DNA from: Patescibacteria group bacterium
Lineage (GTDB): Bacteria; Patescibacteriota; Minisyncoccia; Phycocordibacterales; BOKC01
DNA: 64,000 bases
Assembly: GCA_038062955.1 (NCBI GenBank)
Contig: JBBTWE010000001.1
Coordinates: 182,304-246,303, forward strand
Direction of reading: 5' to 3'
The translations under genes and the position numbers were made by a program. The notes under the pieces were generated by a model. The model ran no database searches. It was given only the letters and a program-made list of their open reading frames with translations, and was not told the origin of the DNA. Below, piece after piece: positions 9,374-31,843 of the stretch (positions are counted from its first letter, which is position 1; each line of letters begins with the position of its first letter).

Positions 9374-9452
9374 TAGCCTTATTTTATAAGATTAAACACT
9401 TTTTGTGAAGCTCTTCTCCGGAGTGGATAACTATTTAAATAGTTAAATAGTT

Positions 9453-9671
9453 TTATAATTTTTCGATTTCTTTTAAATCTCCATCTGGTAGATATAAAAT
9501 AATTAACCCGATAAAGATTCCTCCAACAGCGGTCCAAATATGACTGCTGTTAAAAATCAATATATCGAACTCATCTAACACATACCAAATTCCGCGCCAA
9601 ATCAAAACCAAACCAATGACGATAGAGATATCTTTGGCGAGAGATCGAATAGTCACTTTATTTTCTGGCAT
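9453..9671 (-). CDS. small hypothetical membrane protein
   Basis: 72 aa with two predicted TM helices. Confidence 0.4.
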   Translation of the reverse strand: MPENKVTIRSLAKDISIVIGLVLIWRGIWYVLDEFDILIFNSSHIWTAVGGIFIGLIILYLPDGDLKEIEKL

Positions 9672-9731
9672 AATATTTGCGAATTAATTATTAATTATTT
9701 AATTGGCTTGTTGTGTGTTTCCTACACAATT

Positions 9732-10943
9732 TTAACGAATTATCTTATCAAGAAAAATTGTATCAATCGCAAGAAGCGTGTCTGGTTCATCAGTGCTAAA
9801 TTTACAAAACTGGCTAAGAGCCTTGGTATTTAAGGAAATAATCTCCGAGTTTTTTGATAAAGGCGATTCTATTAACTGACTTTTTAGGAATTCTGACCAA
9901 AATGGAACGAGAGGAGATTCCATTGCCAAAAAAATTCGGAGCGGCAACTTTTCTTTTAAGGTGTATAAAGTTTTTTTGAAATTATTCATCCACTCTGTTT
10001 CCGAGTGTTTTATAACCTCTTTTATTTTGTCGTTGAAGGTTTTTTCAGATCTTTGTTCATAAAATAATTTTATAAAAGACAACGCAATATCAGGATTGAC
10101 TGCGAACTCTTTAATCACATTTCTCAAGAAGAGATTTTTGCCAGATTCTAAATAGGACGAATCGGTAACCAAACCATCTTTTACAGAGGTCATCTCGGTT
10201 ATTTCTCCACCAACCTCTACTAGCAAATAGTCGTGCGCCTCTGGAAACATTTCTTCGATTATTGCAAAACCAGTGAGAGAAAAAGAATGGAAGATAATAT
10301 TGCTGGAAACTTGGGAATGAATTGTGCTTCCAATTTTATCCATCACTTTCTTTAAAATTTTCCCTTCAAACACAGAAAGCTCTATTTCTCGAGCCGTCTT
10401 GTTTATTGGATCTAGCACCACATAGCCATTCAGTTTGGTCTGTATTATCTTCTTCTCTATTGTTTTATATAGATCTTCTTTTTCTCCTATCTTGGTGAGA
10501 TTTTCGCCTTGTTTCCCAGTATTATTTGGGGTTTCAGAATCATACAGATTTATTTTTTTAGTGATGAGTTCTATTAGTTTTGGAGTGATTTCTGTCTGGT
10601 TTTTTTCTTTAATTCCGTAAGTTTTGATTTTTGATATGCACCACGGCGAAGAAACGATGCACAAGACATTTTTGATTTTCTTAGTTTCTAGTTTTCTTAA
10701 GCTTACATGGAGAGTTTTTGCTGATTCCTTAAGAACAATCTTTAAAAGTTTTTGGAGATTTTGGCAGATGTCGTCTATTGATTTTTCTTTGTTCCATTTT
10801 TCAGTTAAAGGCAGACTTAGTCGCCTATTTAAAATTATTTCAGGGATATGGTTTTCTTTGAGATAAACCAAAGCCACTCCAACACTGAAGTTTCCAATAT
10901 CAACAACGAGATGCACCCCTTCTTTTGTATCTTGCCCAAACAT
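9732..10943 (-). CDS. actin-like / Ppx-GppA-like ATPase-fold protein (FtsA/PilM- or exopolyphosphatase-like)
   Basis: N-terminal HLVVDIGNFSVGVALV (phosphate-1-like) and LLVEVGGEITEMTSV (phosphate-2-like, DIGGG-type) motifs. Confidence 0.35.
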   Translation of the reverse strand: MFGQDTKEGVHLVVDIGNFSVGVALVYLKENHIPEIILNRRLSLPLTEKWNKEKSIDDICQNLQKLLKIVLKESAKTLHVSLRKLETKKIKNVLCIVSSPWCISKIKTYGIKEKNQTEITPKLIELITKKINLYDSETPNNTGKQGENLTKIGEKEDLYKTIEKKIIQTKLNGYVVLDPINKTAREIELSVFEGKILKKVMDKIGSTIHSQVSSNIIFHSFSLTGFAIIEEMFPEAHDYLLVEVGGEITEMTSVKDGLVTDSSYLESGKNLFLRNVIKEFAVNPDIALSFIKLFYEQRSEKTFNDKIKEVIKHSETEWMNNFKKTLYTLKEKLPLRIFLAMESPLVPFWSEFLKSQLIESPLSKNSEIISLNTKALSQFCKFSTDEPDTLLAIDTIFLDKIIR

Positions 10944-11055
10944 TACCTAAATTATATCAGATTCTTTAAGATTTAAGATGTATCATTTAAGATTTATGAT
11001 TTCTGCCTTACGGCAGACAGGTAAAATTAATAAAAAAGCCCCACGACTAGTGAAA

Positions 11056-11253
11056 TTAGCGTGAAGCGGTGCCTCGGGCCTCTACATGTTTGCGGATGAC
11101 ATCAACAAGTTCTTTGGCTACTTGCTCAACTTGTGAGTTCATAACTTGCGATACTGGCTCATGCGGCAAACGAGATCTCATCAATTCAATCTGAAAATGC
11201 ATCAATATGTTGTGAATCTGATCCTCGCTGATAGTCTTGCTGGCAGTGTCCAT
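11056..11253 (-). CDS. hypothetical protein (GC-rich island B ORFan, 65 aa)
   Basis: GC-rich ORF with a perfect ribosome-binding site (AAAAGGAGGcgacaATG) and an upstream TTGGAC promoter-like box; compositionally foreign. Confidence 0.45.
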   Translation of the reverse strand: MDTASKTISEDQIHNILMHFQIELMRSRLPHEPVSQVMNSQVEQVAKELVDVIRKHVEARGTASR

Positions 11254-11354
11254 TGTCGCCTCCTTTTTTGTGGATGTTGAGAAAGAACTGCTCGAAAAAA
11301 CATACTCTTTTTAAGTAGTTTTGTCCAATTCCTTTTTATCCTGATGTCTAGTGC

Positions 11355-13133
11355 CTATTCCAACACTGCTTTGATCCTCCTTACTCCAGCAGAAACGGCT
11401 TCTTCTTTGAGGATTTTGAATTTTCCATTCAAATCACCGGTATTTTTAACATGAGGACCTCCACAGAATTCTTTGGAGTATGCAGTTTCCAGATTTTTGC
11501 CAGAGAAATAAACATCAACTTCATTGCCGTATTCTTCACCAAAAAAATGTAGAGCTCCAACTTTTTCCGCTTCAGCCTTTGGTAGAGTTATTTTATTCAT
11601 TGGCAGTTTTTCTTCAATTTTTTCATTCACAATCTCTTCAACTAGTTTTTTCTCTTCAGGCGTCATTTTCTTTGGATGTTCAAAGTCAAAACGCAGTCTT
11701 TCTGGGGTGATATTTGATCCTCTCTGTCTGACACTTGATCCTAAAACGTCTCGCAAAGCTTGGTGAAGAAGATGGGTGGCCGTATGGTACTTTACTGACA
11801 TCTCACTTGTATCTCCAAGTCCACCTTTAAATTTTTTCTCCGCTCCCGTACGAGAAAGTTCCTGATGCTTCTTAAAAAGTTCCTCAACTTCTTGCTTTTC
11901 TATTTTAATTCCCTTTTCAAGAGCTAACTCAATAGTTAGTTCGATTGGGAATCCGTATGATTGGTATAAATTAAAGATTTCTTCAGGTTTAAAATCAGTT
12001 ATTTTCTCAAATTCTTTCATGCCCTTAGAAAGAGTATTTCGAAATTTTTGCTCTTCTTTTTCAATTTCCTGTTTTATAGTCTCTTTTTTATTAAAGAGAT
12101 TTGGATATACATCTTTATATTTTTCTATAACTATTTCTGCGATTAAAAGAATCGATCCAGGTTTTATACCTAGTTTTTCAGCATGATTAATAGCTCGGCG
12201 CAAAAGTCTTCGCAAAATATATCCTCTGTCTGTGTTAGACGGTGTTACTCCCTCAGCAATCATGAATACAGAAGTTCGAATGTGGTCAGCAACTACGCGT
12301 TTGCTTTTTGTAAGCGGCTTATTACTTAATGAGTCAATTTTTTCAAAAATCCCGTCAAATAGATCAGTATCAAAGATATTAGTTTTTCCTTGAAGCACCG
12401 CGCATACCCGTTCAAATCCGGATCCGGTGTCAACGTTTTTATTTTCAAGCTTGCCGACAACTTTGTCGTCTTTTTTGATATATTCCATGAAGACGTTGTT
12501 CCAGATTTCAACCACTTTCTGCTCGTCATCAGCCTTGAGATATTCGTCTTTGGTCATTCCTTTGTCTAACTTTCCGGTGAGATCATAGAACATTTCAGTA
12601 TCAGGACCACATGGGCCATTCGGCCCCGGTTGCCACCAATTATTCTTTGCTGGCATGAAATAAATTCGTTCGCCCGTTACATTATTTTTTTTGAAAATTT
12701 CTCGCCAAATTTCTGCGGATTCTTCATCTCGGGGTGCATCATCATTTCCTTCAAAACAAGTTACATAAAGTCTTTGTGGATCGAGTCCAAATCCTTCAGA
12801 TTTTGAAGTTAAAAGCTCATAGCTCCAGGCAATTGATTCTTTTTTAAAATAATCTCCCAAAGACCAATTCCCCATCATTTCAAAAAAAGTGAGGTGAGTA
12901 TTGTCCCCAATCTCGTCTATATCGCCAGTTCTTACGCATTTCTGAATGTTTGCCAATCTTTTCCCAGCTGGGTGAGGAGTGCCTAAAAGATATGGAACAA
13001 GTGGTTGCATTCCGGCAGTATTAAAAAGCACCGACGGGTCATTTTCGGGTATCAAAGAAGCAGACGGAATAATCGCATGTCCGCGTTTTTCAAAAAATTT
13101 TAAGAATCTCTTTCTGATTTCTTGGCTATTCAT
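11355..13133 (-). CDS. alaS: alanine--tRNA ligase, short form (592 aa; catalytic, tRNA-binding and editing domains, no C-terminal extension)
   Basis: MNSQEIRKRFLKFFEKRGH...FNTAGMQP... plus editing-domain HTATHLLHQALRDVLG... Confidence 0.9.
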   Translation of the reverse strand: MNSQEIRKRFLKFFEKRGHAIIPSASLIPENDPSVLFNTAGMQPLVPYLLGTPHPAGKRLANIQKCVRTGDIDEIGDNTHLTFFEMMGNWSLGDYFKKESIAWSYELLTSKSEGFGLDPQRLYVTCFEGNDDAPRDEESAEIWREIFKKNNVTGERIYFMPAKNNWWQPGPNGPCGPDTEMFYDLTGKLDKGMTKDEYLKADDEQKVVEIWNNVFMEYIKKDDKVVGKLENKNVDTGSGFERVCAVLQGKTNIFDTDLFDGIFEKIDSLSNKPLTKSKRVVADHIRTSVFMIAEGVTPSNTDRGYILRRLLRRAINHAEKLGIKPGSILLIAEIVIEKYKDVYPNLFNKKETIKQEIEKEEQKFRNTLSKGMKEFEKITDFKPEEIFNLYQSYGFPIELTIELALEKGIKIEKQEVEELFKKHQELSRTGAEKKFKGGLGDTSEMSVKYHTATHLLHQALRDVLGSSVRQRGSNITPERLRFDFEHPKKMTPEEKKLVEEIVNEKIEEKLPMNKITLPKAEAEKVGALHFFGEEYGNEVDVYFSGKNLETAYSKEFCGGPHVKNTGDLNGKFKILKEEAVSAGVRRIKAVLE

Positions 13134-13155
13134 ACTGAATACTATATACCATATA

Positions 13156-13767
13156 CTAACTTTGCTTCAAAACTTTAAAATCTTCTTTCAAAGTGTCTTT
13201 GGTGTGAGAATTATAGATGGCAACGGCAGGGTGATAGAGAGGAATAATTTTCATTTTTCCGAAACTTGCGTCGGTTTCGAAAATTTTCCCGTGAATTTTG
13301 GAAATTGGTTCGATGTCAAAATCTAGGCCGAATTTTCGCATAATATAATCCATTGAAAAACGCCCGAGAGTCGCAATGATTTTTGGCTTAATTATTTCAA
13401 TCTGCCTGTCCAAAAAAGGGCCGTAAACTTCTATTTCTTCCGGAAGCGGATCTCGATTCCCCGTCGGCCGATCTTTTACAATATTTGTTATATAAATATC
13501 TTTTCGATCTAATTTCACACTCTCTAAAAGTTCATCCAAAACTCTACCGGACGCTCCACAAAAAGGCTTGCCGGTTAACGCTTCGTTTTTTCCTGGAGCT
13601 TCGCCGATGAATACAATTTCGGCAAAATGACTTCCCTCTCCAATCACCGGGAAAACTTTATTAGCGATTCTTTCTTTGTATAAAGGAGAATTTTTGAGAG
13701 CAACAACCTCGTCCTTGATCTGCCTCATGAGTTCCTTCCTTTTTTCTGTTTCTACTACATCTAACAT
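13156..13767 (-). CDS. udg: uracil-DNA glycosylase, family 4
   Basis: GEAPGKNEALTGKPFCGASGRVLDELL motif. Confidence 0.85.
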   Translation of the reverse strand: MLDVVETEKRKELMRQIKDEVVALKNSPLYKERIANKVFPVIGEGSHFAEIVFIGEAPGKNEALTGKPFCGASGRVLDELLESVKLDRKDIYITNIVKDRPTGNRDPLPEEIEVYGPFLDRQIEIIKPKIIATLGRFSMDYIMRKFGLDFDIEPISKIHGKIFETDASFGKMKIIPLYHPAVAIYNSHTKDTLKEDFKVLKQS

Positions 13768-13796
13768 TCAATAATAATAACCCCACAATCTATATA

Positions 13797-13845
13797 AAAA
13801 AAGCGCCTCGCGATTCGTTGTTCACGAATTTCGCAAGGCGCCGTT
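13797..13845 (-). terminator. intrinsic terminator of island C, homologous to 43016-43064
   Basis: ggcgccttgcgaaattcgtgaacaacgaatcgcgaggcgc plus T7 on the minus strand; about 80% identical to the terminator of island L gene 3. Confidence 0.65.
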
Positions 13846-13870
13846 GGGCGAGCTGTAGATTTGTTACTAC

Positions 13871-14380
13871 CTACTGCGGTTTGGTGGGAGGCGGAAGGGC
13901 GTGATAAACCGTGAACTGTCGAGGGATTGCTTTGACTTTTGCTTTTTGCCCCTCTATCTCACTCACGAGTTTCCAATTGGCATCGGTCATCTCTGCGTTG
14001 AATACGCTAGCAAGTACATCCTGTTCCTTTTTGATGGCTTCCATCTCATGGGACCAGGAGGAAAGCTGGTTGATCGCCCACTGTGTTTGTGGATTATCAC
14101 CGAAGGAATCCCGCATCGATTTCAGGAAACTCTCGTAGATGAGGATGTCTCTCTGCTTCTTGTAGATTTCTGCAGCGGTATCCTCGAACCACTGGCACCT
14201 CTCGATCATCGCGCGAGGACCAAGTTTCGATGATGTCTCAAACGTAAGTTGGCTAAAGACTATGCATGCAGCCGAGAGACCAAAGATTGCACCTGCCAAC
14301 ATGGCCACAGGTAGTCTCTGTGGCCATTTACCTCTACGATCATCAAGGATCTTTTCCCCATTCAGTTTCGTGGATTCCAT
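13871..14380 (-). CDS. hypothetical membrane-anchored protein (GC-rich island C ORFan)
   Basis: 169 aa with N-terminal TM (LPVAMLAGAIFGLSAACIVF); ribosome-binding site GGAGGAGAAATTGAG-ATG; a palindromic promoter upstream; its terminator is homologous to the one at 43016-43064. Confidence 0.5.
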   Translation of the reverse strand: MESTKLNGEKILDDRRGKWPQRLPVAMLAGAIFGLSAACIVFSQLTFETSSKLGPRAMIERCQWFEDTAAEIYKKQRDILIYESFLKSMRDSFGDNPQTQWAINQLSSWSHEMEAIKKEQDVLASVFNAEMTDANWKLVSEIEGQKAKVKAIPRQFTVYHALPPPTKPQ

Positions 14381-14444
14381 CTCAATTTCTCCTCCAAAAG
14401 AACTGGAACTCTGTAGCGGAGTGCCACAAAGTGTTTATCTGCTT

Positions 14445-14476
14445 TGAATATAAAATACTTGACTATACGAGTCAAG
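14445..14476 (-). promoter_or_regulatory. promoter of island C with a perfect 7-5-7 palindrome CTTGACTcgtatAGTCAAG overlapping the -35 (operator-like)
   Basis: minus strand TTGACT-N17-TATATT; the palindrome is seen directly. Confidence 0.5.
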
Positions 14477-14559
14477 AGTAGAAAAAATTAAATAAAAAAC
14501 ACCCCGATATTCATCCGTTTGTTGCAGATTTTATCAAGGTGGTTATTTGTGTTTTCAAA

Positions 14560-14718
14560 TCAGAGTAACACAACGACTACATACCATACTCCACAAAGAA
14601 AAGAACCAGAGATGACGGCACCCACCAGAAAGATTGCGATGGTGAGTAGTGTGTCTAACCCGGTACGAATGGGTTTCAATTGCGGAACCCATGAAGATGC
14701 GTCTTGTTTTGGAGTCAT
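14560..14718 (-). CDS. small hypothetical membrane protein (island D; start may instead be 14763)
   Basis: 52-67 aa GC-rich ORF with TM segment LLTIAIFLVGAVISGSFLCGVWYVVVVLL; lies upstream of island C on the same strand. Confidence 0.3.
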   Translation of the reverse strand: MTPKQDASSWVPQLKPIRTGLDTLLTIAIFLVGAVISGSFLCGVWYVVVVLL

Positions 14719-14778
14719 ACTTTCCCTTTTGTTGTGAGGAACTTGCCGTGTAAACCATAACAAAAAATCAACTTGCCG

Positions 14779-15027
14779 TCAATATAATTTTTCAGCTTCC
14801 AGAATTTCTTTCTTTTTCTCTGTCCCCCGATTATATCCACCAGTTTTTCCATCACTGCGAATTACCCTATGACACGGAATATCTGAATTAAAGTTTTTAT
14901 TTAAGATATTGCCGACAGCTCGAAACGCTTTAGGACTCTTGGCTTTCGTCGCCACTTCTTTATACGTCAAAACTTTTCCTTTCGGAATTTTGGAAACTAC
15001 ACTTAACACTTTTTCTTTAAACAACAT
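14779..15027 (-). CDS. methylated-DNA--protein-cysteine methyltransferase DNA-binding domain protein (MGMT/Ogt C-terminal domain only)
   Basis: active-site motif IPCHRVIRSDGKTGGY. Confidence 0.8.
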   Translation of the reverse strand: MLFKEKVLSVVSKIPKGKVLTYKEVATKAKSPKAFRAVGNILNKNFNSDIPCHRVIRSDGKTGGYNRGTEKKKEILEAEKLY

Positions 15028-15032
15028 AATTT

Positions 15033-15839
15033 CTAACCAAATAGAGTTGGAATCTCTTCTTCTGGACTATTATTTTTTATTTTAGCGATTTTTTTAGTTT
15101 TTGGTGCGGACGTTTTGGTTGAATTTTCTGGTAATTTATCTTTATAAAGTTCTTTGATTACTAAATTCGCGTTTTTTCTGTAAGAGCAATGTTCGCAGTC
15201 GTTGTTTGCATCCGGCAAAGTGTCTTGTTTTAGACATTCTGAAATCTCTAAAAGCACTCCAGGAATCCACGAACTGTCCCCTTCATAAGTAATAACATCA
15301 ACATCAAATTCTAATTTTCCATCAAAGGCTTTTTCGTCCTTTCGGCCATTCACATAAACAAAGTAGCCGGTATTTGAAACATTGTGGCCATTTTGTTTGA
15401 AAAGCCACTGATAAATTTCCATCTGCCTTTTGTAAGCCTGTTGCCAATGTCCGTCGAGATTTGGTTTTTCATTTTTGGAAGTGGCCTTGTAATCTACAAT
15501 GTGAAGTTCTCCATTATCATTCTTCCAAATATCGTCAATTGCGCCGTATACCAAAAAACCCGTTGCTTCATGTTTGTGTTGAATGCCGGTAAAGTTATGT
15601 CGCCATTTTTCTAATTCGGCATGGGCAAATGGAATTGCATTTATCCCATATTTCTTCATGAGAGGGTGAGCTTCTTTGTTCGCCCTATGAATATCAAATT
15701 CTTTTTTTAAGAGATGGTCGACGGCGCTGTTTAAGGTAAAAGCTGGCATCGAGGGACGCTTAACTTGCAATTTTTGATCCAAATAAAAACAGCGTTTACA
15801 TTGGATAAATAAGTCTATTTTAGATCTGCTAAGTTTCAT
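15033..15839 (-). CDS. PD-(D/E)xK nuclease with Cys cluster (Cas4/RecB-exonuclease-like)
   Basis: N-terminal CKRC; IVDYKATS (D...E/D-x-K core); C-terminal CEHC; start codon is part of the MITE target-site duplication. Confidence 0.55.
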   Translation of the reverse strand: MKLSRSKIDLFIQCKRCFYLDQKLQVKRPSMPAFTLNSAVDHLLKKEFDIHRANKEAHPLMKKYGINAIPFAHAELEKWRHNFTGIQHKHEATGFLVYGAIDDIWKNDNGELHIVDYKATSKNEKPNLDGHWQQAYKRQMEIYQWLFKQNGHNVSNTGYFVYVNGRKDEKAFDGKLEFDVDVITYEGDSSWIPGVLLEISECLKQDTLPDANNDCEHCSYRKNANLVIKELYKDKLPENSTKTSAPKTKKIAKIKNNSPEEEIPTLFG

Positions 15840-15970
15840 CCCGTAGTGAAATTTCAGGTAGTTTTGATACCAAAACTTACCGAGATTATATTTAAAATTG
15901 TAAATTAAGAAAAAACTAACCGGTAATATTATTTAGATCTAGTAGTATCAACCTGAAATTCTACTACGGG
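15840..15970. mobile_element. MITE-like element copy 2 (131 bp; target-site duplication tTTCAT/aTTCAT at 15834-15839 and 15971-15976)
   Basis: 21-bp terminal inverted repeat atcccgtagtgaaatttcagg / cctgaaattctactacgggat (19/21); the left target-site duplication is the ATG of the Cas4-like gene. Confidence 0.75.
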
Positions 15971-15975
15971 ATTCA

Positions 15976-16554
15976 TCAATTGTTCTCGGGAGTTTCTGAA
16001 ACAGATCTTGTTTCCGTTCTTCCAATCGATCTTTTGAGTTTGTCTTCGATGACCCAGACTATAGTGAAAGTAAAAAGTGTGAGAAATGAGGCAAATAAAG
16101 CTAAAGCAAATAATTTGAAACCGACAGCAATGCCAATCCCGCAAGCAACCCAAAGACCGGCGGCGGTTGTTAGCCCTTCAATTTTATTCTCTCTGAAGAT
16201 GATGAGACCAGAGCCAATAAAGCCAACCCCCATTACTATGCCGGCGGCTATTCTCATTGGATCGAAATTTGTTAGCCCAACAAACCCGCTATTCATGGTG
16301 GCGGAAGTGATAATAAGTAAGCATGACCCCATGGAAACTAGTCCATAAGTTCTCATTCCAGCGGTTTTTCCAGCAAATGTTCTTTCAGAGCCAAGCAAAG
16401 TACCTAAGATAATAGCGACTATTAGTTGGATGTAAGGCATATATTCCATGTTATTTTTATTGTAAAGAAATATTATCTCTCTCAAATTCATTATACCGCT
16501 AGCGTATACCAAATACCAATTAAATTGGACAAACCACGGAAACTTCTTTTCCAA
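15976..16554 (-). CDS. MgtC/SapB family membrane protein
   Basis: LGTLLGSERTFAGKTAGMRTYGLVSMGSCLLI; the true start is probably the internal MEYMPYIQL. Confidence 0.75.
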   Translation of the reverse strand: MEKKFPWFVQFNWYLVYASGIMNLREIIFLYNKNNMEYMPYIQLIVAIILGTLLGSERTFAGKTAGMRTYGLVSMGSCLLIITSATMNSGFVGLTNFDPMRIAAGIVMGVGFIGSGLIIFRENKIEGLTTAAGLWVACGIGIAVGFKLFALALFASFLTLFTFTIVWVIEDKLKRSIGRTETRSVSETPENN

Positions 16555-17347
16555 TTTCTTCCAATTTTTCTTTGTTAAGTCTTAAAGATTTTAGTACTTC
16601 CGAATCTGGCCTAAGACTTTTACACAAAACTGTGCCGGAACTTAAAATTGCCGTCTTTTGGGTGTTGCTCAAACTTTGTAAGCAAGTAATTGGGTGAAGT
16701 CCTGAGTCTTGGATTATATCCTGCAAATTTCCTTGATTTGGATAGTTCCAGCCAATCATGATCATTCCTGCGCACTTTCCGTAATTTATCGCGCTAGAGC
16801 TAAATTTTGTATTTGTAACTAGCCAATTCTCATCAAATTTTCTTTTTCCACCGTAATCAAATTCAATATTCGCCAAGTCCTCACTTCGTGCCTTTACATA
16901 GAGCGCGGTTTTTAAATCACTTTTTACTCCAAGTGAATTATGAAATTTGGCCTCTATCGCTATTAGTTTATTTTTATTATAGGCGATCACATCGATCTCA
17001 TGTTCGGCGCATTTTCCGCGAATTATTTGATCAGTTTTAACCGTGTAGCCCTTTTCTTTCAGTATCTCACCAAGATATTTTTCAAAAGGAAATCCTGATG
17101 GCCCCAGAGTGAGAATAGCCCTTCGCAGAGAATAGCTTAAGGCAACTGGTTTTGATTTCTTCTCCAACAGAAAAAAAGCGTGCTTATAAATTTGATCGGT
17201 GCCCATGCCTTCACGGAGTTCTTTTTCAACGTGAGCTATTATTTCTTCGGTTAATTCTTCCGATGCTTTTGATCGTAAAAGAGAATCTCTTAATTTATTA
17301 GGATCAAAATCCTCGAGTTCGCCGTTTTGTTTTGTTATTTTTATCAT
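16520..17347 (-). CDS. ATP-cone domain protein fused to a restriction-endonuclease-like (Mrr/PD-(D/E)xK) domain
   Basis: N-terminal MIKITKQNGELEDFDPNKLRDSL (ATP-cone); EIDVIAY...IEAKFH nuclease-like motifs. Confidence 0.55.
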   Translation of the reverse strand: MIKITKQNGELEDFDPNKLRDSLLRSKASEELTEEIIAHVEKELREGMGTDQIYKHAFFLLEKKSKPVALSYSLRRAILTLGPSGFPFEKYLGEILKEKGYTVKTDQIIRGKCAEHEIDVIAYNKNKLIAIEAKFHNSLGVKSDLKTALYVKARSEDLANIEFDYGGKRKFDENWLVTNTKFSSSAINYGKCAGMIMIGWNYPNQGNLQDIIQDSGLHPITCLQSLSNTQKTAILSSGTVLCKSLRPDSEVLKSLRLNKEKLEEIGKEVSVVCPI

Positions 17348-18346: not shown

Positions 18347-19621
18347 TTAGATCGGTAAATTAGAAGGTGGTTTAGCTTTCTTAGCCTCGATTCTAGTTAA
18401 TGTTGGAGTTGTGGCAACTTGGCCAGGGAAATGATAAATCGTTGCAAGCTCTTCGGTGGTCAAAATAAAAGGTTCGGCATTATAGTCATGATAGGGCGGC
18501 CTGAAAAAAGATCTCATCTTATAAGCTTCAAGCATGTGTTTCTCGTAACTCGTTCGTAATTTTGCCATATAATTTTTGACTCCAGGAACCCAGCTAAAAA
18601 TATTTATCCAGTCTTTAGTATTATCACTATGATCGGTATACCATCCCAAACCGAATTTATTTAGGGAAAGTGAATTGTATTGCCTGATGCTTCCGATAAG
18701 AGCTGGAATGTTTGCGGCGTTAAAGGATTCATTTTTAGCTATGTAAAAACCTCGGATCATTGTGTCAAAAGGATATTTACCTAAACTTCTCTCAATTGCT
18801 GAAATTTTTTCCACTTGTCCTTTTGTTGGGTTTGGAAACCCCGGAAAATCGCTACCTTCAATTTCTGGTGTAGCTTCTTTTCGAATTTTTTCAATCTCTT
18901 CTTTGGCTTCGTTTTTCCAATTTTCTTCTTTGAAGAGTCGTCCTTCTCGCAAGCCTTCTTTTTTATGAACTTGAATTAAAATTTGAATCCAAACTTGCTC
19001 ACCAGCTTTTAAAGATCCTAAATATTCCGTTACCGCTGTAAAAGGATCAACTTTAAACTCCTCGTCTTCCCCTGCGCTTTTGTCGAGTCCATAATCAATG
19101 TAAGTTTTTATTGGATAAACATCTTTTTCGTCCAATTTCCAATATGTGCCCCATACTGTAAATTTACTTGGATCATATTGAACATCTTTTACATAATCTT
19201 CTGCTTCGTAAATTTCAACAGTTGGATACTGAGCATATATCTGAGTTTCTATTAAGCCTCTGAATTTCTCTTGTGCCCAGATGAAAAATCTGACATTGCC
19301 ACCAATAGATACAAGCTCTAAAGAAAACCACGGTCTGGTTTTTCCGATCCAGTAGGTGTCGGTATACGTCACTGCTCCGCTTTGCCAAATCGAAGTTAAA
19401 AATACTTCCATAGCAAGAGGGGTCTTTGTAATATCTTTGGAAATTTTTATTTCGAGCAGAATAAATTCTTGCTGATTGATATAGTCGGTTCGGATGTAGT
19501 GCTGCCAAATTTTGAAAAATATAATAGCCAGTATTATAGGAAGAGCGAAGGTCAACAGAAAAAGAAAAAGATTAAAGGCCGGTGCAAGGACAGAGTTAAA
19601 AAGATTTGATATAAAATCCAT
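18347..19621 (-). CDS. hypothetical membrane-anchored protein
   Basis: 424-aa ORF with N-terminal TM helices; no family recognised. Confidence 0.55.
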   Translation of the reverse strand: MDFISNLFNSVLAPAFNLFLFLLTFALPIILAIIFFKIWQHYIRTDYINQQEFILLEIKISKDITKTPLAMEVFLTSIWQSGAVTYTDTYWIGKTRPWFSLELVSIGGNVRFFIWAQEKFRGLIETQIYAQYPTVEIYEAEDYVKDVQYDPSKFTVWGTYWKLDEKDVYPIKTYIDYGLDKSAGEDEEFKVDPFTAVTEYLGSLKAGEQVWIQILIQVHKKEGLREGRLFKEENWKNEAKEEIEKIRKEATPEIEGSDFPGFPNPTKGQVEKISAIERSLGKYPFDTMIRGFYIAKNESFNAANIPALIGSIRQYNSLSLNKFGLGWYTDHSDNTKDWINIFSWVPGVKNYMAKLRTSYEKHMLEAYKMRSFFRPPYHDYNAEPFILTTEELATIYHFPGQVATTPTLTRIEAKKAKPPSNLPI

Positions 19622-19788
19622 GATTTCTATTTTAACGTAAAAATAAAATAGGCGCTAGGTATCCCTCCGGGATCATAAAAACATCAGTGAAATAATCTCT
19701 ATTACTTGACAAGACACTCCAATTCTGTAATTGTATATGAGGATAAACCTGCACTTCGTAGGAATCTGTTCTTTAACAAGGGTTCATT

Positions 19789-20256
19789 ATGCTACTCGCA
19801 ACCGATAGAAAGGCAAAGGTACGTCTGAGAAGGCTCGCAAGGCTCGACTTCACCCAAATCAAGGCCAAACTTTGTTCCGAGATGCCTGGGTGGAATGCGG
19901 AGAAGGCAGAACTCATCGAGAAGTGGTATCGCCGCTTCTTGCAGGTCATTCTCTTCCACCCGCAAGCAAAGATCGTTCCCAACACACTGGTGGATGACTT
20001 CTGGCACGCTCACATCCTCGACACCAAGAAGTACATGCTGGACTGCCAGAACGTCTTCGGGCACTTCGTCCACCACGAACCGTCCTACGGCGAAGAGAAG
20101 TTGGAGGGAGGCTACGATGAGACCAACGCCCTCTTCCGTGAGACGTTTGGTGAAGATCAGACAGTTCTCGAACCTAGTCGGGCTGGTAAAAAGTGCAGGA
20201 AGAAGTGCAGAAGGAAGTGTGGAAGCATAGACGGAAACTGTGCTAGCGGGTACTGA
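19789..20256 (+). CDS. hypothetical protein with DDFWHAHILDT...Y..DC...GHFVHHEP motif and a Cys/Lys-rich C-terminal tail (possibly GRDP/DUF1399-like)
   Basis: GC-rich 155-aa ORF (island E); a plus-strand hairpin plus T8 terminator lies at 20268-20302; the antisense ORF 19792-20274 was rejected. Confidence 0.55.
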   Translation: MLLATDRKAKVRLRRLARLDFTQIKAKLCSEMPGWNAEKAELIEKWYRRFLQVILFHPQAKIVPNTLVDDFWHAHILDTKKYMLDCQNVFGHFVHHEPSYGEEKLEGGYDETNALFRETFGEDQTVLEPSRAGKKCRKKCRRKCGSIDGNCASGY

Positions 20257-20313
20257 AGCGGGACAATTCCCCAAACCATAACAAGTTTGGGGGATTATTT
20301 TTTTTAAATTTTT

Positions 20314-20523
20314 ATGTTACTTCTAATTTGTTTTATCATTTTAATAATTCTGATTCTTTACCAGTATTTTCTATTTTACTTACTTCCGATGGCAGGATCA
20401 AAAGGTGCGCTTGGAGATGCACATGTACTCTTTACACTAGGAGGTTTGTTACTGATAGTTGTGGATATTCTTGTTCCAATTGTTTTCTACACATTTAAAT
20501 TCATAGAATTTTTAATTAATTAA
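20314..20523 (+). CDS. small hypothetical membrane protein (start may be the internal Met at about 20392)
   Basis: hydrophobic 44-69 aa ORF directly downstream of island E; it is followed by a bidirectional terminator. Confidence 0.3.
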   Translation: MLLLICFIILIILILYQYFLFYLLPMAGSKGALGDAHVLFTLGGLLLIVVDILVPIVFYTFKFIEFLIN

Positions 20524-20614
20524 ATAAATAGTCTGTAATGTAGAATAGAAAGGTTAAATGGTATTAAACCCTTTGATCGTCTACACGCTCGCTAACCGGA
20601 ATAAAGCAAAACCC

Positions 20615-20658
20615 CCGAACCGAAAGGAACGGGGGTTTTGCTTTTTATTTTGACTTTA
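20615..20658. terminator. bidirectional intrinsic terminator
   Basis: A-run, aaaacccccgaaccgaaaggaacgggggtttt, T-run. Confidence 0.75.
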
Positions 20659-20678
20659 TAACTTTTAACCTTATAACT

Positions 20679-21719
20679 TTAAACTAGTGTGTACTTTCCT
20701 TCTTTATTTTTCTTGAAGAATTTAGGATTCTGGAGATTCACCAAAACAGTATTTTCTTTAACGTATCTTTCTTTCAAAACCTTCTTAATGACTTCGTCTT
20801 TAGCAAGAGGACCTTCTTTTTTTAGGATGCTTGCAATAACGTCTTTTACCACTCCTTTTTCATATCCCCATTCAGATAAGGCGTATAGACCTCGGCCGAC
20901 AAGCACAAAACGAGCGTCTTTTATAAGTTCGTTATGGGTTGTTGCAAAATGAGCTCTTTTGTTGAAAGTTTTTTCGATTAAGTTGGCTACTTCTCTAAAG
21001 TGAATCGGAGAACCATGTTTTCGGATGATTAAATAAGCGTAATCTCGCACTCCCTTTACTTTCACATTTGTTGAATTAGCTTTACCCCATTCACCAAGCG
21101 GATTCTTTCCGATTTTTTTGGAAATATTCAACCATCTTTTTATAATTTCCTCGTTTTTGTATTCTTCAGAAATATCTTTCAAATGTTTGAGAAAAGCTTT
21201 GACCATTTCTGCTTCAGGGACAATTTCGTCGCTAGAAAGACTGTTGTAGAGATTCTTTAGAGCGTCGTGAATTTTTTCGGCTAGCTTCTCATCTATATGC
21301 CATCTATGATTGAAATCTTCATCCTCTTTTTCTCTATGAAAATCTTCGGAAACCGTCAACATAAAATTTATATGATTTTGTGCTGATTTATCATCTGAAA
21401 AATGTTCTAGAAGTTCACTTTCTTTTACTGTTCCACCAAGTTTCTTCAAGACAGCCTTTAGCTCATCATAAGCGGCTTTTTCTTTTCCATATACATCAGA
21501 CTTTTTGATAGTTTTAATAGAATAGTTCTCTATTTGTCTTATTCTTTCACGGGTAATACCATGCTTATCCCCGATAGATTCGAGGGTTTGTTTCTTGGTA
21601 TCTTCTCCAAGACCGTATCTTAAAGTTAAGATTTCTGCGGCTCTTTTAGGCAATACCTCAAGCAACTTTCGGTTAAGTTGTTTAGGGTTGAAACTCAATA
21701 TATTAGCTTTTTTATTCAT
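20679..21719 (-). CDS. sigma-70 region-4 (HTH) domain-containing protein with an uncharacterised C-terminal domain
   Basis: N-terminus LPKRAAEILTLRYGLG...TLESIGDKHGITRERIRQIE matches sigma region 4.2. Confidence 0.5.
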   Translation of the reverse strand: MNKKANILSFNPKQLNRKLLEVLPKRAAEILTLRYGLGEDTKKQTLESIGDKHGITRERIRQIENYSIKTIKKSDVYGKEKAAYDELKAVLKKLGGTVKESELLEHFSDDKSAQNHINFMLTVSEDFHREKEDEDFNHRWHIDEKLAEKIHDALKNLYNSLSSDEIVPEAEMVKAFLKHLKDISEEYKNEEIIKRWLNISKKIGKNPLGEWGKANSTNVKVKGVRDYAYLIIRKHGSPIHFREVANLIEKTFNKRAHFATTHNELIKDARFVLVGRGLYALSEWGYEKGVVKDVIASILKKEGPLAKDEVIKKVLKERYVKENTVLVNLQNPKFFKKNKEGKYTLV

Positions 21720-21965
21720 AAATATTCTTTAGAACTTCCACATTTGGCCAATTTTGTCGTAAAAACTTCCGCTCCTCACTTCATCGTATTATTAAATACG
21801 TCTCGTTTCGGTGCTCAATTTTTCCAACAAACTTGTCTCAAATCCGGAAGTTATAATTTGTTTGGTAAATTCTCTTTTTCTTGGTTTTTTGATTCTAACA
21901 CTGTTTATATAATAAAGTCAAACCCCATTGATATTAACACAAGTTTACTATCTAATATCCTTGAT

Positions 21966-24527
21966 CTATAACACAATATTCAAAATTTTGCCTTTAACGT
22001 AAATTATTCTTTTTACCTCCTTTCCTTCTATCCATTTTTTAACACTAGGAAGGTCAAGGATCTTCTCTTTTATATCTTTTTCTGACATCTCGCTTTCCAT
22101 CTCAAAAATATCTCTGGTTTTACCATTTATTTGAATAGCTAATTTAGAACTTTGTTTTATTTTTTGAGAATCAAACATTGGCCAAGGAGAAAGATAAATT
22201 GATTTCTTATTTCCTAAATTTGCCCACAATTCTTCTGTGATATGGGGCGCAAATGGCGAGATGAGTTGCAAAACTGTTTCGTATATTTCTTTTGAAATTT
22301 TTTCTTGATTTTCTAGAGCGCCCGCAAGAATCATGAGAGAAGAAATTGCGGTATTAAAATTAAAATTTTCTATATCTTCACCAACTTTTTTTATTGTCTG
22401 GTGAAGAAGGCTCTGTAAATCAGAATTTATGACCTCTAATTTTTTGTTTGTGACTTTTTCTTGGAGTCGCCAAATTTTTTCCAAGAATCTTCTGGAGCCA
22501 ATCATGTTTTGGGTATCCCAAGCAATCGCATTTTCAAATGGACCCATAAACATTTCATAAACGCGGAGCGTATCGGCTCCCCACGTCGCTACAATCTCAT
22601 CCGGATTTATAACATTTCCAAAACGCTTGCTCATTTTTCGGCCGTCAGGGGCCATGATGAGACCGACGTTCTTAAATCTCATAAACGGTTCTTTGGTTGC
22701 AAAAATCTTCATGTCGTACAAAAACTTATGCCAAAATCTAGCGTAAATTAAATGCCGTGTTGCATGTTCAGCTCCACCAATATACATATCAACTGGTAAC
22801 CACGATTCGAAAGCGCTTTTAAATTGCTCCAATCCTTTTTCTGTTTTTGCTTTTAGGCCGTTTACAGGTGTCGACAATAAACCTGTCGACCTAGTAGTTT
22901 TCGATTTCATTGCATACGCCGCGTAATACCAAGAAGACCCCGCCCATTGAGGCATGGTATTGGTTTCTCTTTGCGCTTTTCCACCGCATTTCGGACATTT
23001 TATGTTCACGAAGCTCGCAATATTCGCAAGCGGAGATTCTCCGGTTCCGGATGGTTCGTATGATTTTACTTTCGGCAATTTAACCGGTAAATCTTCGTCA
23101 GGAATCGCAATCCATCCTGGATTCAATAATTCTCCAGTATTAAAATTCTTGTGGTATTCAATCCTCCCCTCCTGCGTCTCGGCTCTTTTTTTACACTGTA
23201 CACAAAAAACAAGTGGGATTGGTTCCCCCCAATATCTTTGCCTTGAAAAAACCCAGTCTCGCAGTTTATAAGTGGTTTTGCGTTTTGCTAATTTATTTTT
23301 TTCTAAATATTTAATAATTTCATTCCGGATGTTACCAGCCACTTTCCCATCAAATTCTTTCGGGTTTTTAAGAACTCCACTCTTCATGTCGGTAAAACAA
23401 ATTTCCAGATTTCTGACTTTTTCTGCGAGCACAGAATCTGCTGGAAACAGAACAGGTTTAAGCGGAATTTTGTATTTCTTGGCAAATTTAAAATCTCTTT
23501 CATCATGAGCAGAGCACTTTACTATTCCGGTTCCATAATCAGCCAGGGCATAGCTTGCAACCCATATTGGTAGTTCCCCATTTTCCACTGGGTCGATTGT
23601 GTATCGTCCGGTAAATATTCCTTCCACTTCTTTTTGCTCTTTAAAACCTGCTTCACTTCTATTTTTTACAAGCCTGGCTGAAAAATCCAAAATTTCTTTT
23701 TTATTTGGAATTCCTTCTAAAAGTTTTGGCAAAAGTGGATGATCGGGCGCGATAACCACAAAAGTATCGGCCGCAAATGCTTCAAAGTGTGCTGAGAAAG
23801 TTTCAATTTTAATATCAGTTCCCTTAATCGGTGACGTAAAAATCATTCCCTCACTTTTTCCTATCCAGTTTCTTTGTGATTCTTTTATTGAATCTGACCA
23901 ATTTAAAAGATTTAAATCTTCGAGAAGTCTTTCAGCATAATCAGTAATTTTAAGCACCCACTGGCGCATGGGTTTTTTCTCGATAACGGATCCACATCGT
24001 TCACATTTTCCATCTTCTAAATCTTCGTTTGCAAGACCAGTTTTGCATGACGGACACCAATTGATTGGCTCAAATGATTCGTAAGCTAATCCCCTTTTAA
24101 ACATCTCAAGGAAGATGAGTTGTGTCCATTTGTAATATTCTGGATCAGTTGTATTTATTTCTCTGTTCCAATCATAATTAAAACCCAAAACCTCGAGCTG
24201 TTTTTTAAAAGTATTTACATTTTTCTTAACTGCAATTTCTGGGTGAATTTTATTTTTTATAGCAAAATTTTCGGCTGGAAGTCCAAAAGCATCCCAACCC
24301 ATGGGGTGAAGTATGGAAAATCCTTTAGCTTTTTTGTACCTGGAGTAAACGTCCGTTGCGATATAACCTTTTGGGTGTCCTACATGAAGCCCGTCGCCGG
24401 ATGGATAAGGGAACATATCAAGGACATAACATTTTTCTTTTGGAGAGGCGTCAGTTTTGAAAATCTTTTTCTTGTCCCAAACTTTCTTCCATTTCGATTC
24501 TATTTTTTTGTGGTTGTACTCTTTCAT
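21966..24527 (-). CDS. leuS: leucine--tRNA ligase
   Basis: MFPYPSGDGLHVGHPKGY (HIGH region) and KMSKRFGN (KMSKS); the start is the ATG at 24525-24527 (MKEYNHKKIESKWKK); the 14 extra codons in the ORF track come from the MITE. Confidence 0.95.
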   Translation of the reverse strand: MKEYNHKKIESKWKKVWDKKKIFKTDASPKEKCYVLDMFPYPSGDGLHVGHPKGYIATDVYSRYKKAKGFSILHPMGWDAFGLPAENFAIKNKIHPEIAVKKNVNTFKKQLEVLGFNYDWNREINTTDPEYYKWTQLIFLEMFKRGLAYESFEPINWCPSCKTGLANEDLEDGKCERCGSVIEKKPMRQWVLKITDYAERLLEDLNLLNWSDSIKESQRNWIGKSEGMIFTSPIKGTDIKIETFSAHFEAFAADTFVVIAPDHPLLPKLLEGIPNKKEILDFSARLVKNRSEAGFKEQKEVEGIFTGRYTIDPVENGELPIWVASYALADYGTGIVKCSAHDERDFKFAKKYKIPLKPVLFPADSVLAEKVRNLEICFTDMKSGVLKNPKEFDGKVAGNIRNEIIKYLEKNKLAKRKTTYKLRDWVFSRQRYWGEPIPLVFCVQCKKRAETQEGRIEYHKNFNTGELLNPGWIAIPDEDLPVKLPKVKSYEPSGTGESPLANIASFVNIKCPKCGGKAQRETNTMPQWAGSSWYYAAYAMKSKTTRSTGLLSTPVNGLKAKTEKGLEQFKSAFESWLPVDMYIGGAEHATRHLIYARFWHKFLYDMKIFATKEPFMRFKNVGLIMAPDGRKMSKRFGNVINPDEIVATWGADTLRVYEMFMGPFENAIAWDTQNMIGSRRFLEKIWRLQEKVTNKKLEVINSDLQSLLHQTIKKVGEDIENFNFNTAISSLMILAGALENQEKISKEIYETVLQLISPFAPHITEELWANLGNKKSIYLSPWPMFDSQKIKQSSKLAIQINGKTRDIFEMESEMSEKDIKEKILDLPSVKKWIEGKEVKRIIYVKGKILNIVL

Positions 24528-24786: not shown

Positions 24787-25050
24787 TTACTCTTTTCGCT
24801 CGGCACCTTGTTCGACGAGCCAAGCCTCGATTCTCTTCGCATTTTCTGCTGAGAAGAATCCGCGGTAGTATCCAGGACCGCTACTCCCCGAAGTACCAGA
24901 GACTCTGAAGACGCCCTCCTTCAGTTGAAAACTGGTAAATCTGTTGACAAGTCCCCCATCTTCGTAGACGGGATAAGGAGGAGCTTCCTTTTGCTCTCCC
25001 CTTATGCTCACATAGACTCCGGGAATTGTTTCGAAAGTGACTTTTGGCAT
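24787..25050 (-). CDS. hypothetical protein (GC-rich island F ORFan, 87 aa from MPKVTF...)
   Basis: ribosome-binding site AAGGAGaacATG at the internal ATG; TTGACA-N17-TATACT promoter at about 25120-25150; gGGCGGCCATTGCTGGTCGCCC terminator. Confidence 0.5.
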   Translation of the reverse strand: MPKVTFETIPGVYVSIRGEQKEAPPYPVYEDGGLVNRFTSFQLKEGVFRVSGTSGSSGPGYYRGFFSAENAKRIEAWLVEQGAERKE

Positions 25051-25243
25051 GTTCTCCTTCTTTTCGGGTATGATTCGTGACAGCGATGTACTGGCCACGA
25101 TTCTCAAGAAAATAGTTTTTTCTATCGTCCTAAAAACCGCGGCCAGCTACAAAATCAGTGAGTTTTGAATGAACAATTTTCTGCGTCCAGTATACACCCA
25201 TTCGTGTATTTTGTCAAGGACAAATGCACGGCTAGAAATAAGC

Positions 25244-28412: not shown

Positions 28413-28688
28413 CTACTCCTGAAGTTTGTCCCTGATTGCATAGTGCCTCTCCCTCAAGAATACGTGGTGTTCGTTTTCGGTTTTGCCAGCCAAAAACGCA
28501 AGCTTTCGAAGTTCTGCCAGAGCAGCCTGTCGTCGTTCTTGCTGGCTTCTCGACCAGCTCGACACTCCTTGGTAGTTGCCCTCATTCACCCTCTTGCTTT
28601 CAGTCTCAATCTCGACAACTTGTCTGGCAAAATCATCAACAGCTGCGTTGTACCGGTCAAGCGGGCTTATGCTTTCTTCACTACACAT
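28413..28688 (-). CDS. hypothetical protein (GC-rich island G ORFan, 91 aa)
   Basis: GC-rich ORF; ribosome-binding site AAGGAccgctATG; downstream hairpin attaccgacgaag...cctcgtcggtaat plus T-rich tail. Confidence 0.45.
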   Translation of the reverse strand: MCSEESISPLDRYNAAVDDFARQVVEIETESKRVNEGNYQGVSSWSRSQQERRQAALAELRKLAFLAGKTENEHHVFLRERHYAIRDKLQE

Positions 28689-30878: not shown

Positions 30879-31083
30879 ATATCAATAATAACATATTAGT
30901 GGATTCACGATGTAATATCTATGATTCAAGAAAAAGAAGCGTCACAAATTTTTCATGACTACGCCATGAAAAATCTTGCGACGTAATTTTTGTAGTGCAA
31001 AAATTAAAAGCGGGAACCCACGAATGTGGATTCCCGCTGGTTCTGACAGACGGATCTCTACTACTTCTCTCGAGGGCCTACGA

Positions 31084-31356
31084 TCAGGCCTGCTGGAGGA
31101 GTTCCAGCCGATCGAGTGGACGTTGGTTGAGCAACCCTTGGGCAACCTTCCTGATCGGTTGTCTCCTCTTCAGAGCATCCTTGATCCGACTCAACACTCT
31201 CGCGTCGAGGTGGTTCGCTCCACCGCTCTCGAGAATCATCTTCACGAGGCCCAACTCGGGATTGATTTCGCGAAGCTTCGGGGGCGGCTGTTCCTGCATC
31301 AGAGGGCGCATTGACCCTCTGCTTTCTCTGGGACGTGGACGATGACCGTGATTCAT
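31084..31356 (-). CDS. hypothetical protein (GC-rich island H, 90 aa)
   Basis: ribosome-binding site AGGAGAaacgcagg-ATG; strong intrinsic terminator gcgggaatccacattcgtgggttcccgc plus T-run on the minus strand (about 31005-31040). Confidence 0.55.
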   Translation of the reverse strand: MNHGHRPRPRESRGSMRPLMQEQPPPKLREINPELGLVKMILESGGANHLDARVLSRIKDALKRRQPIRKVAQGLLNQRPLDRLELLQQA

Positions 31357-31795: not shown

Positions 31796-31843
31796 CGTCT
31801 CGAACCCCAGCATCTACGGATGCTGGGGTTCTTATTTTATATA

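Follow-up and report, generated by a model that had tools for sequence, protein, structure and literature searches.

A variable two-gene cassette in a groundwater Patescibacteria genome encodes a PF27765 (GRDP-like superfamily) protein with a cysteine-rich tail, possibly a domain coupled to a peptide

We analysed a 64,000-nucleotide (nt) stretch of the genome of a Patescibacteria group bacterium (NCBI GenBank assembly GCA_038062955.1, contig JBBTWE010000001.1, positions 182,304 to 246,303 of the forward strand), referred to below as the window. The subject of this report is a two-gene accessory cassette inserted between a sigma factor-like gene and a gene of family DUF8128 in this groundwater Patescibacteria genome. 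The first gene encodes a 155-amino acid (aa) protein that consists of a conserved domain and a Cys-rich tail, and the second encodes a small membrane protein (Table 1). A first-pass annotation had described a 155-aa protein containing DDFWHAHILDTKKYMLDC and GHFVHHEP and ending in KKCRKKCRRKCGSIDGNCASGY, a strong terminator, and a hydrophobic open reading frame (ORF) of 44-69 aa. All three were recovered: the plus-strand ORF matches that protein exactly, a 12-bp stem at 20265-20296 is followed by a T-run, and the small ORF is 69 aa long, or 44 aa when read from an internal ATG at 20389.

Table 1. Features of the cassette and its border in window coordinates (GC3, GC content at third codon positions).
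Feature	Position	Strand	Details
Variable cassette (indel)	19645..20600	no strand	~60 nt in its place in close relatives L105/L107
Candidate promoter	19707..19735	+	TTGACA at 19707, 17-nt spacer ending in TG, AATTGT; read by eye
Coding sequence of the 155-aa PF27765 protein (UCP032817-like, GRDP-like superfamily)	19789..20256, stop included	+	profile E = 7e-62; GC3 0.68
Conserved all-alpha domain, aa 1-128	19789..20172	+	invariant residues W72, H73, H75, I76, L77, D78, T79, Y82, D85, G91, P98
C-terminal tail	20173..20253	+	PSRAGKKCRKKCRRKCGSIDGNCASGY; 27 aa, 4 Cys, net charge +8
Intrinsic terminator of the 155-aa gene	20265..20306	+	12-bp stem, 5 G-C pairs, 8-nt loop, then ATTTTTTTTA
Small membrane protein gene, 69 aa	20314..20523	+	two hydrophobic segments, PMAGS loop, C-terminal DILVP..Y..K.IEF motif
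Sigma-like gene terminator hairpin, matching Rfam ohsC_RNA (RF02495)	20603..20669	-	55 bits (gathering score 50); window E = 1e-5

Close relatives of the window genome were located via the DUF8128 gene. In two of them, L105 and L107, the sigma-like gene is 96.8% and DUF8128 86-87% identical to the window, and in the alignment the sigma-like gene with its terminator hairpin is separated from DUF8128 by about 60 nt and no other element. The intergenic gap between the two genes is 153 nt in these relatives compared with 1057 nt in the window, and it measures 68 nt in the more distant L108. Because L105, L107 and L108 have short gaps instead, we assign both ORFs to a single indel of about 955 bp with approximate boundaries, which is absent from close relatives. 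A third relative, L106 (DUF8128 85.6% identical), carries the cassette inverted relative to DUF8128, and here it comprises a start-less remnant with the last ~45 codons of a diverged main-gene copy (tail AGAGVCSGTSCNNTGTETKCTRRCKKK), a terminator hairpin of different sequence with a T-run at the same place as in the window, and an intact 68-aa homologue of the small membrane ORF. The remnant starts close to the contig start, where an assembly effect is possible. Because the diverged small ORF lies beside a main-gene remnant in L106, the main gene and the small ORF form one variable cassette. The only repeats at its ends are inverted, imperfect and AT-rich (11-19 nt) and may have arisen by chance, and the window holds just the one copy of the PF27765 family.

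The cassette lies in the neighbourhood of YceG, DUF8128, a protein with sigma-70 region 4 and HARE-HTH similarity, and leucyl-tRNA synthetase (LeuRS). The flanking gene at 20679-21719 (minus strand) encodes the 346-aa sigma-like protein, which matches Sigma70_r4 and, below threshold, HARE-HTH and DUF3320, and the gene at 18347-19621 (minus strand) encodes a 424-aa membrane protein of family DUF8128. The adjacency of these two genes is kept in L108 down to 37-59% identity.

An antisense ORF of 160 aa (19792..20274, minus strand) was rejected as coding; it has no homologues, whereas the plus-strand product has thousands. The identical 155-aa protein is deposited at NCBI as 'MAG: hypothetical protein AAB534_01065 [Patescibacteria group bacterium]' and occurs on nine Hainich groundwater contigs, with the same context wherever flanks are available. 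The main gene is a sharp GC island (53% GC compared with 38% for the window). Its GC3 compares with 0.26-0.33 in YceG, DUF8128, the sigma-like gene and LeuRS, and the small ORF of the same indel has a GC3 of 0.23. GC3 of the family gene exceeds the host mean by 0.08-0.30 in 10 of 12 Patescibacteria relatives, and hydrolase genes that adjoin it in other Patescibacteria have a GC content like their flanks or lower. High GC, mainly at third codon positions, is confined to the family gene when the window is set beside loci L008, L013, L018, L024, L025, L040 and L087. This pattern is not explained by one transfer from a donor of high GC, as the small ORF and the partner hydrolase genes are host-like in GC.

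The gene had been credited with its own promoter, a claim that stands in part. The TTGACA element is perfect and the spacer is TG-extended, but the -10 element, AATTGT, is weak; it matches TATAAT at three of six positions and was therefore not listed by a consensus scan, so the candidate is not a canonical promoter.

The precomputed Pfam assignment of the exact window protein is PF27765, 'UCP032817-like' (PIRSF032817), and the gene is one more member of this catalogued, uncharacterised family. The PF27765 model was not in the local Pfam copy that we searched, and the family name is taken from the precomputed matches; the local Pfam and NCBIfam copies returned no family for the protein. With a profile built from six members, which gave the E value in Table 1, an exhaustive search retrieved 12,719 representatives (50% identity clusters) at E<=1e-3 and 708 at E<=1e-30. 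A scan of species-representative genomes gave at least 600 matches, of which at least 598 were confirmed, and the matches listed include Patescibacteria, Oxalobacteraceae, Bacteroidota, Nitrospinota, Acidobacteriota, Cyanobacteria and other groups. Where members are named at NCBI, they are called 'hypothetical protein' or 'glycine-rich domain-containing protein'. Within the family the window protein is divergent, its domain being at most 54% identical to that of any other representative. Plasmids contribute 29 matches among 72,556 records, and one match, 38% identical to the window protein, is encoded by an uncultured jumbo phage of 595 kb (LR756511.1, 158841-159212). Neither the window protein nor four relatives nor the small ORF matched a PHROGs or PADLOC model.

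The first-pass annotation had noted, with low confidence, a resemblance to a motif of the GRDP/DUF1399 family (PF07173). An hmmscan of the window protein gave no match to PF07173 (gathering threshold 22.7 bits) at E<=1, and the exact family is PF27765. Five relatives nevertheless pass the PF07173 threshold, namely P0003, P0004 and P0005 (27.6-32.7 bits, model positions 82-143) and the Halomonas and Stanieria plasmid proteins. The matches of these relatives span the last 40-60 model positions, which contain the WHxHxLDT motif. Because relatives pass the threshold and the window protein does not, this resemblance was right at the superfamily level only, and PF27765 is a sister of the plant GRDP/DUF1399 family within one superfamily. 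Some relatives (P0016, P0007, P0008, P0018; L114, 3890-5419) are multi-domain proteins, in part with two or three domain copies; P0016 is a low-complexity protein of 948 aa, possibly eukaryotic, with three. Membrane-anchored relatives end in long (GGGC)n or GC-rich runs, and in a Planktothrix protein the domain is joined to a membrane region and a (GGGC)n tail.

Conservation was examined in an alignment of 125 sequences, and AlphaFold2 was run with 125 sequences. The invariant columns are P64, D69, W72, H73, H75, I76, L77, D78, T79, Y82, D85, G91, P98 and G101, and the window protein carries all 14; at least 90% of the homologues also keep C86, H95 and H96. The motif that had first drawn attention is thus conserved across the family and not a chance resemblance. 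It can be written as W-H-x-H-I-L-D-T..Y..D-C....HH-x-P within a domain of ~128 aa, which AlphaFold2 predicts to be all-helical with a predicted local distance difference test score (pLDDT) of 94-98 for residues 11-100. The PDB gave no match by sequence and no characterised structural relative of the fold, and no known metal-binding fold was matched. The invariant His/Asp set looks like an active site or a metal site and not like a leader peptide, and metal binding by the domain is plausible given its invariant His and Asp residues. The N-terminus, MLLATDRKAKVRLRRLARLDF, is charged and not hydrophobic; by inspection, without a prediction tool, no signal peptide is apparent, and no leader site of the double-glycine type was seen in the 155-aa protein.

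Beyond the domain, the window protein continues into a probably disordered tail with a pLDDT of ~50 from residue 131 and no confident predicted structure. A 12-nt tandem duplication, AAAAAGTGCAGG / AAGAAGTGCAGA, encodes KKCR twice within this tail. In a sample of 341 unique family members, Cys accounts for 7.7% of residues in the tails compared with 1.4% in the domains (a 5.5-fold enrichment). At least two Cys are present in 318 of the 341 tails (93%) and none in 18, while tail length spans 4 to 276 aa. The motif RPx[LFVIM] occurs within the last 30 residues in 122 tails as opposed to four domains, usually 5-12 residues from the C-terminus.

The tails fall into classes. The commonest (76/341) is polybasic, (K/R)RCKAPKCRTQCKP(M/V)KC(K/R), with a median of 24 aa, 4 Cys and a charge of +7, as in RCKAPKCRTQCKPMKCK. 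Next are 58 tails, assigned by regular expression, with tandem arrays of the core A-[YWF]-[CS], the longest of ~25 copies; related Oxalobacteraceae have versions with Cys (AYCGAAV) and with Ser (AYSGRVA). Smaller classes are C..H.CH.P..C.CR.PG.CK (20 members), CDAxQC (11) and GCSPQRCP (7), and the other 169 tails were left as a remainder. Many classes are acidic or neutral. The ARCxDHxCHxPxxCxCRxPGxCK class is found in Bacteroidota, Gammaproteobacteria and Longimicrobium and the GCSPQRCP class in four phyla. Tail class tracks domain phylogeny, with the nearest neighbour by domain belonging to the same class in 73/76, 55/58, 17/20 and 7/7 cases. The window tail resembles the polybasic class but has no exact counterpart, and the window domain is equidistant (48-54% identity) from all tail classes. 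Cys spacing is C-x3-C-x3-C in the window and C-x4-C-x3-C-x4-C in the commonest class, with CxxC or GGC runs in others.

In a few members the domain and the peptide are encoded separately. Five plasmids carry a tail-less domain protein, next to which a tiny gene of its own encodes a peptide on the Pseudomonas, Halomonas and Stanieria plasmids; downstream of four of the five tail-less genes lies a gene for a membrane protein, a methyltransferase or both. On the plasmids of Pseudomonas savastanoi PVFi1, P. s. pv. phaseolicola 1448A and Halomonas sp., an annotated ORF of 42-44 aa precedes the tail-less gene. These ORFs differ in their N-terminal parts and share the C-terminal core GGGHCQGGG[GS]W, and a literature search for the core GGHCQGGG found nothing. 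On the 3' side of the Pseudomonas and Halomonas domain genes, separated by 3 nt or overlapping, are genes for ~440-aa polytopic membrane proteins that are homologous to each other, the Halomonas one being weakly MatE-like. These operons lie at L100 3700-5688, L111 4527-6619 and L110 4707-6688, and the Halomonas operon adjoins luxI and luxR genes. In P. savastanoi the three genes, for the 44-aa ORF, the domain protein and a membrane protein of 438 aa, span positions 20872-22860 of NZ_CP078141.1. On the Stanieria plasmid the tail-less gene is followed by a 43-aa ORF, MNSQAAFCFLMPEAGFCFLDKKGNLQRPSIKL..., with aromatic-Cys repeats and an RPS motif as in fused tails, and then by a methyltransferase gene; on the Maritalea plasmid it is followed by an 11-helix membrane protein. 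The genome set contained a single tail-less member, with no convincing separate Cys-rich small ORF beside it. The same domain thus occurs with its peptide in cis in most members and in trans on the Pseudomonas, Halomonas and Stanieria plasmids, which supports functional coupling of the two parts and no particular chemistry.

For the second gene of the cassette, an ORF of this length arose in 67 of 2000 shuffles of the intergenic region. The L106 homologue aligns without internal gaps at 30 of 68 identical residues, and the differences between the two fall on the three codon positions as 28, 14 and 37, a coding pattern; because of this ungapped homologue and its pattern of differences, we take the small ORF to be a real, conserved gene. 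No public assembly calls it as a gene, the protein database searched contains no homologue, and the L106 counterpart is known from DNA. It was absent from the other family loci fetched up to that comparison. The pairing with a tiny membrane protein that the first reading had emphasised therefore holds within the lineage, where both ORFs share one indel and L106 has a copy beside the remnant, but does not extend to those other family loci.

Clustering of neighbours in 80 genomes, with ORF calling that is crude in high-GC loci, found no partner common to the whole family; only lineage- or class-specific partners emerged, and the family gene stands alone in most genomes. One of these contexts belongs to the GCSPQRCP class. 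On an Azospirillum plasmid (A. ramasamyi NZ_CP029836.1, positions 8928-16709; L103 129-7910) we read a full, tightly packed six-gene order of domain protein, S-adenosylmethionine (SAM) methyltransferase, TauD/TfdA dioxygenase, UvrA-like ATPase (~1400 aa), a second SAM methyltransferase and PhyH dioxygenase. The family protein there has the tail ..ARGC(K/S)(S/P)Q(N/R)CP. Subsets of the operon, always with the UvrA-like ATPase, lie beside the family gene in seven genomes of four phyla, and the genome loci of this class are L022, L023, L034, L046, L051, L063 and L072. The operon looks like an uncharacterised biosynthetic or resistance cluster. In seven Patescibacteria genomes a cytoplasmic S9/BD-FAE-type hydrolase lies directly 3' of the family gene in varied genomic contexts. 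One Hainich Patescibacteria contig of 305 kb (L093 6001-8707) has a three-gene insert in its conserved S10 ribosomal operon, between rpsS and rplB, in which the family gene is joined by a convergent gene for a Peptidase_S9-type hydrolase and by one for a 317-aa protein of unknown function. At a Paceibacterota locus, an ATP-binding cassette (ABC) ATPase and a methyltransferase lie upstream. No S9 hydrolase homologue is present within the window. A modifying enzyme, protease or transporter beside the precursor, the layout of a cluster for ribosomally synthesized and post-translationally modified peptides (RiPPs), is found in some relatives and not in the window.

Taken together, these comparisons lead us to a tentative reading, which we hold to be quite possible: the gene would encode a conserved maturation or carrier domain, probably dependent on a metal, and the Cys-rich peptide to which it is coupled; the two are fused here and share a two-gene cassette with a small membrane protein. 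Domain and tail would be two functionally coupled modules, as the comparative evidence suggests, with the domain probably a metal-binding peptide-maturation or carrier domain and the tail the peptide that it acts on or presents. We read the tail in this way because it is fused to the domain in most members and encoded by separate genes in a few, where the small gene shares an operon with the domain gene, a pattern that classically points to a functional link. The substrate or payload in the window would be the KKCR-KKCR-RKCG...C tail. The small membrane protein holds the position of the polytopic, exporter-like membrane proteins in three tail-less operons and may serve export or self-protection, which is the weakest step. 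The original suggestion of a peptide or toxin-like module accordingly gains comparative support for its peptide part, from separable tails and three split plasmids, but is not shown at this locus.

Several observations weigh against this reading. The window protein has HHEPSYGEEK where the family consensus is HHFPYFGxRG. Because the fold is without a characterised relative, the labels 'enzyme' and 'metal site' derive from conservation alone, and we found no biochemical activity reported in the literature for any family member. No exporter, peptidase, methyltransferase or S9 hydrolase lies beside the window gene, and by inspection no cleavage motif was seen between domain and tail. Simple metal binding would account just as well for Cys-rich tails of any charge. 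The evidence for the split arrangement comes from five plasmid loci with tiny ORFs known from annotation alone, and one of these, on the Maritalea plasmid, has no convincing peptide ORF beside the tail-less gene. Finally, it may be that the small ORF works independently of the main gene, because a strong terminator separates the two and L106 keeps the small ORF next to a start-less remnant.

A bolder version, which we regard as somewhat unlikely, would make the PF27765/GRDP-like domain an unrecognised peptide-modifying metalloenzyme that acts on Cys or Ser next to aromatic residues or Gly, either in its own tail or in a separate peptide. The window cassette would then be a minimal fused precursor-enzyme with a small membrane partner. 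If so, the family would define a new class of modified peptides of ribosomal origin, spread very widely from Patescibacteria to plants and counting more than 12,000 sequence clusters.

Of the alternatives, a serious rival, although we consider it unlikely, is an intracellular metalloprotein or redox protein whose domain and tail bind or buffer Zn, Cu or Fe-S or sense thiol oxidation, with no cleavage or export. The prevalence of tails with two or more Cys (93%), their regular and in part metallothionein-like spacings, the invariant His/Asp residues, the lack of a signal peptide apparent by inspection and the solitary gene in most genomes would all suit such a protein. Less easily accommodated by it as a general explanation are the replacement of Cys by Ser in similar Oxalobacteraceae repeats, the 18 tails without Cys, and arrays of up to ~25 near-identical repeats with a conserved RPxL end, which would be unexpected of a metal site. 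The split operons with peptide genes and exporter-like proteins, and the methyltransferase/dioxygenase operon, also suggest peptide processing.

The polybasic class raises the idea of an antimicrobial peptide with its immunity protein, which is possible even though the locus shows no export or processing signals. In a bacteriocin-like pair of this kind, the domain would be a pro-domain, the cationic four-Cys tail would be released as the antimicrobial, and the small membrane protein would confer immunity. Cathelicidins, with their cathelin pro-domain, offer a parallel, and the beta-hairpin antimicrobial peptides tachyplesin and gomesin resemble the commonest tail class in size and symmetric Cys spacing. 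The net charge of the window tail and its four Cys fit this picture, as does the downstream hydrophobic gene, which is kept in L106 after decay of the main gene in the manner of orphan immunity genes. However, inspection showed neither a signal peptide nor a double-glycine leader, no transporter or protease lies beside the window gene, and a pro-domain would need no invariant His/Asp. In addition, many tail classes are acidic or neutral, and family members outside the lineage were not accompanied by the small ORF. We consider the bacteriocin-like pair distinctly improbable for the window gene.

Slightly more doubtful again is an unrelated, housekeeping-like enzymatic or binding role of the domain with the tail as a tolerated low-complexity appendage without specific function. 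The predicted disorder of the tail, its range of lengths and the lack of a family-wide partner would be expected of an appendage, but conservation of tail classes across phyla, the 5.5-fold Cys enrichment and the separate peptide genes on three plasmids would not.

The hairpin that matches ohsC_RNA belongs to the genome backbone and not to the cassette. Its alignment to RF02495 relies on a perfect 15-bp stem 10 nt past the stop codon of the sigma-like gene, a homologue is present in L105 and L107, both without the cassette, and other terminator-containing Rfam models match the same spot below their thresholds. The sigma-like gene terminator is probably bidirectional, and the match is a false positive of RF02495 outside enterobacteria, on a strong terminator. 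A type I toxin-antitoxin locus, with the small ORF as a ShoB-like toxin and the match as its antisense RNA, was therefore rejected as highly improbable: it is suggested by a score above the gathering threshold on the opposite strand 80 nt downstream of a small hydrophobic ORF, but the match rests on a terminator stem, does not overlap the ORF and is kept in L105 and L107 where the ORF is missing.

Elsewhere in the window, about ten other small GC-rich islands (46-58% GC compared with 38%) sit between housekeeping genes, among them 2791-3339, 13871-14380, 24787-25107, 28413-28688, 30995-31813, 43084-43518, 51371-51814 and 54513-55460. They encode ORFs without a Pfam match, the sole family match being at 33312-33986 (Formyl_trans_N), and could be additional accessory genes of the genome that are either foreign or evolving fast.

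We found no literature on the bacterial family under UCP032817, PF27765, PF07173, DUF1399 or GRDP-like. As far as we could find, the comparison gives PF27765 its first testable functional frame, that of a conserved His/Asp domain linked to a Cys-rich peptide, the two being fused in almost every member sampled and encoded separately on three plasmids. The frame also takes in tail classes conserved across phyla, tandem multi-core arrays, and class-specific partners in the form of methyltransferases, dioxygenases, a UvrA-like ATPase, S9-type hydrolases and exporter-like membrane proteins. Should the domain prove to be a maturase, the family would open a large untouched space of peptide natural products, including in reduced-genome symbionts thought poor in secondary metabolism, and would provide a biochemical lead for the plant GRDP proteins. 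If the tails bind metal instead, it would be a widespread small metalloprotein. In either case, experiments could readily begin with the three-gene operon of the Pseudomonas plasmids.

Known systems share parts of this organisation. ShoB/OhsC (RF02495) resembles the locus in having a small hydrophobic ORF near an RNA-model match above the gathering score, but the match in the window is the terminator of a neighbouring gene and occurs in relatives without the ORF. Long-leader RiPP precursors of the NHLP and Nif11 types are cleaved at a double-glycine site and have maturases and transporters encoded alongside. They are like the window protein in that a conserved N-terminal domain of ~100 aa precedes a hypervariable Cys-rich C-terminal region, but the window domain has enzyme-like invariant His/Asp residues, no cleavage motif was seen and no maturase is adjacent. 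Plant BURP-domain autocatalytic cyclases and the fungal borosin OphMA are enzyme-substrate fusions with variable, often tandem core peptides. Here the likeness is one of architecture, with a catalytic-type domain and variable tandem peptides in one polypeptide encoded by lone genes that lack separate tailoring enzymes, whereas there is no sequence or fold relationship to PF27765. The plant GRDP1/GRDP2 proteins (PF07173) share the region of the WHxHxLDT...DC motif, although they are ~800 aa long and carry an RNP-1 motif, and the window protein has no PF07173 match. GRDP2 likewise couples the domain to a Gly/Cys-rich C-terminal region, with the consensus [CG]GGGCGG[GC] (PMC4299439), and the plant literature on these proteins gives phenotypes only, in growth and stress. 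The closest comparison is with PF27765 itself: the window protein departs from the family in HHEPSYGEEK for HHFPYFGxRG and in a tail without exact counterpart, but it agrees with the family in domain length, in all invariant residues and in the layout of a domain followed by a tail.

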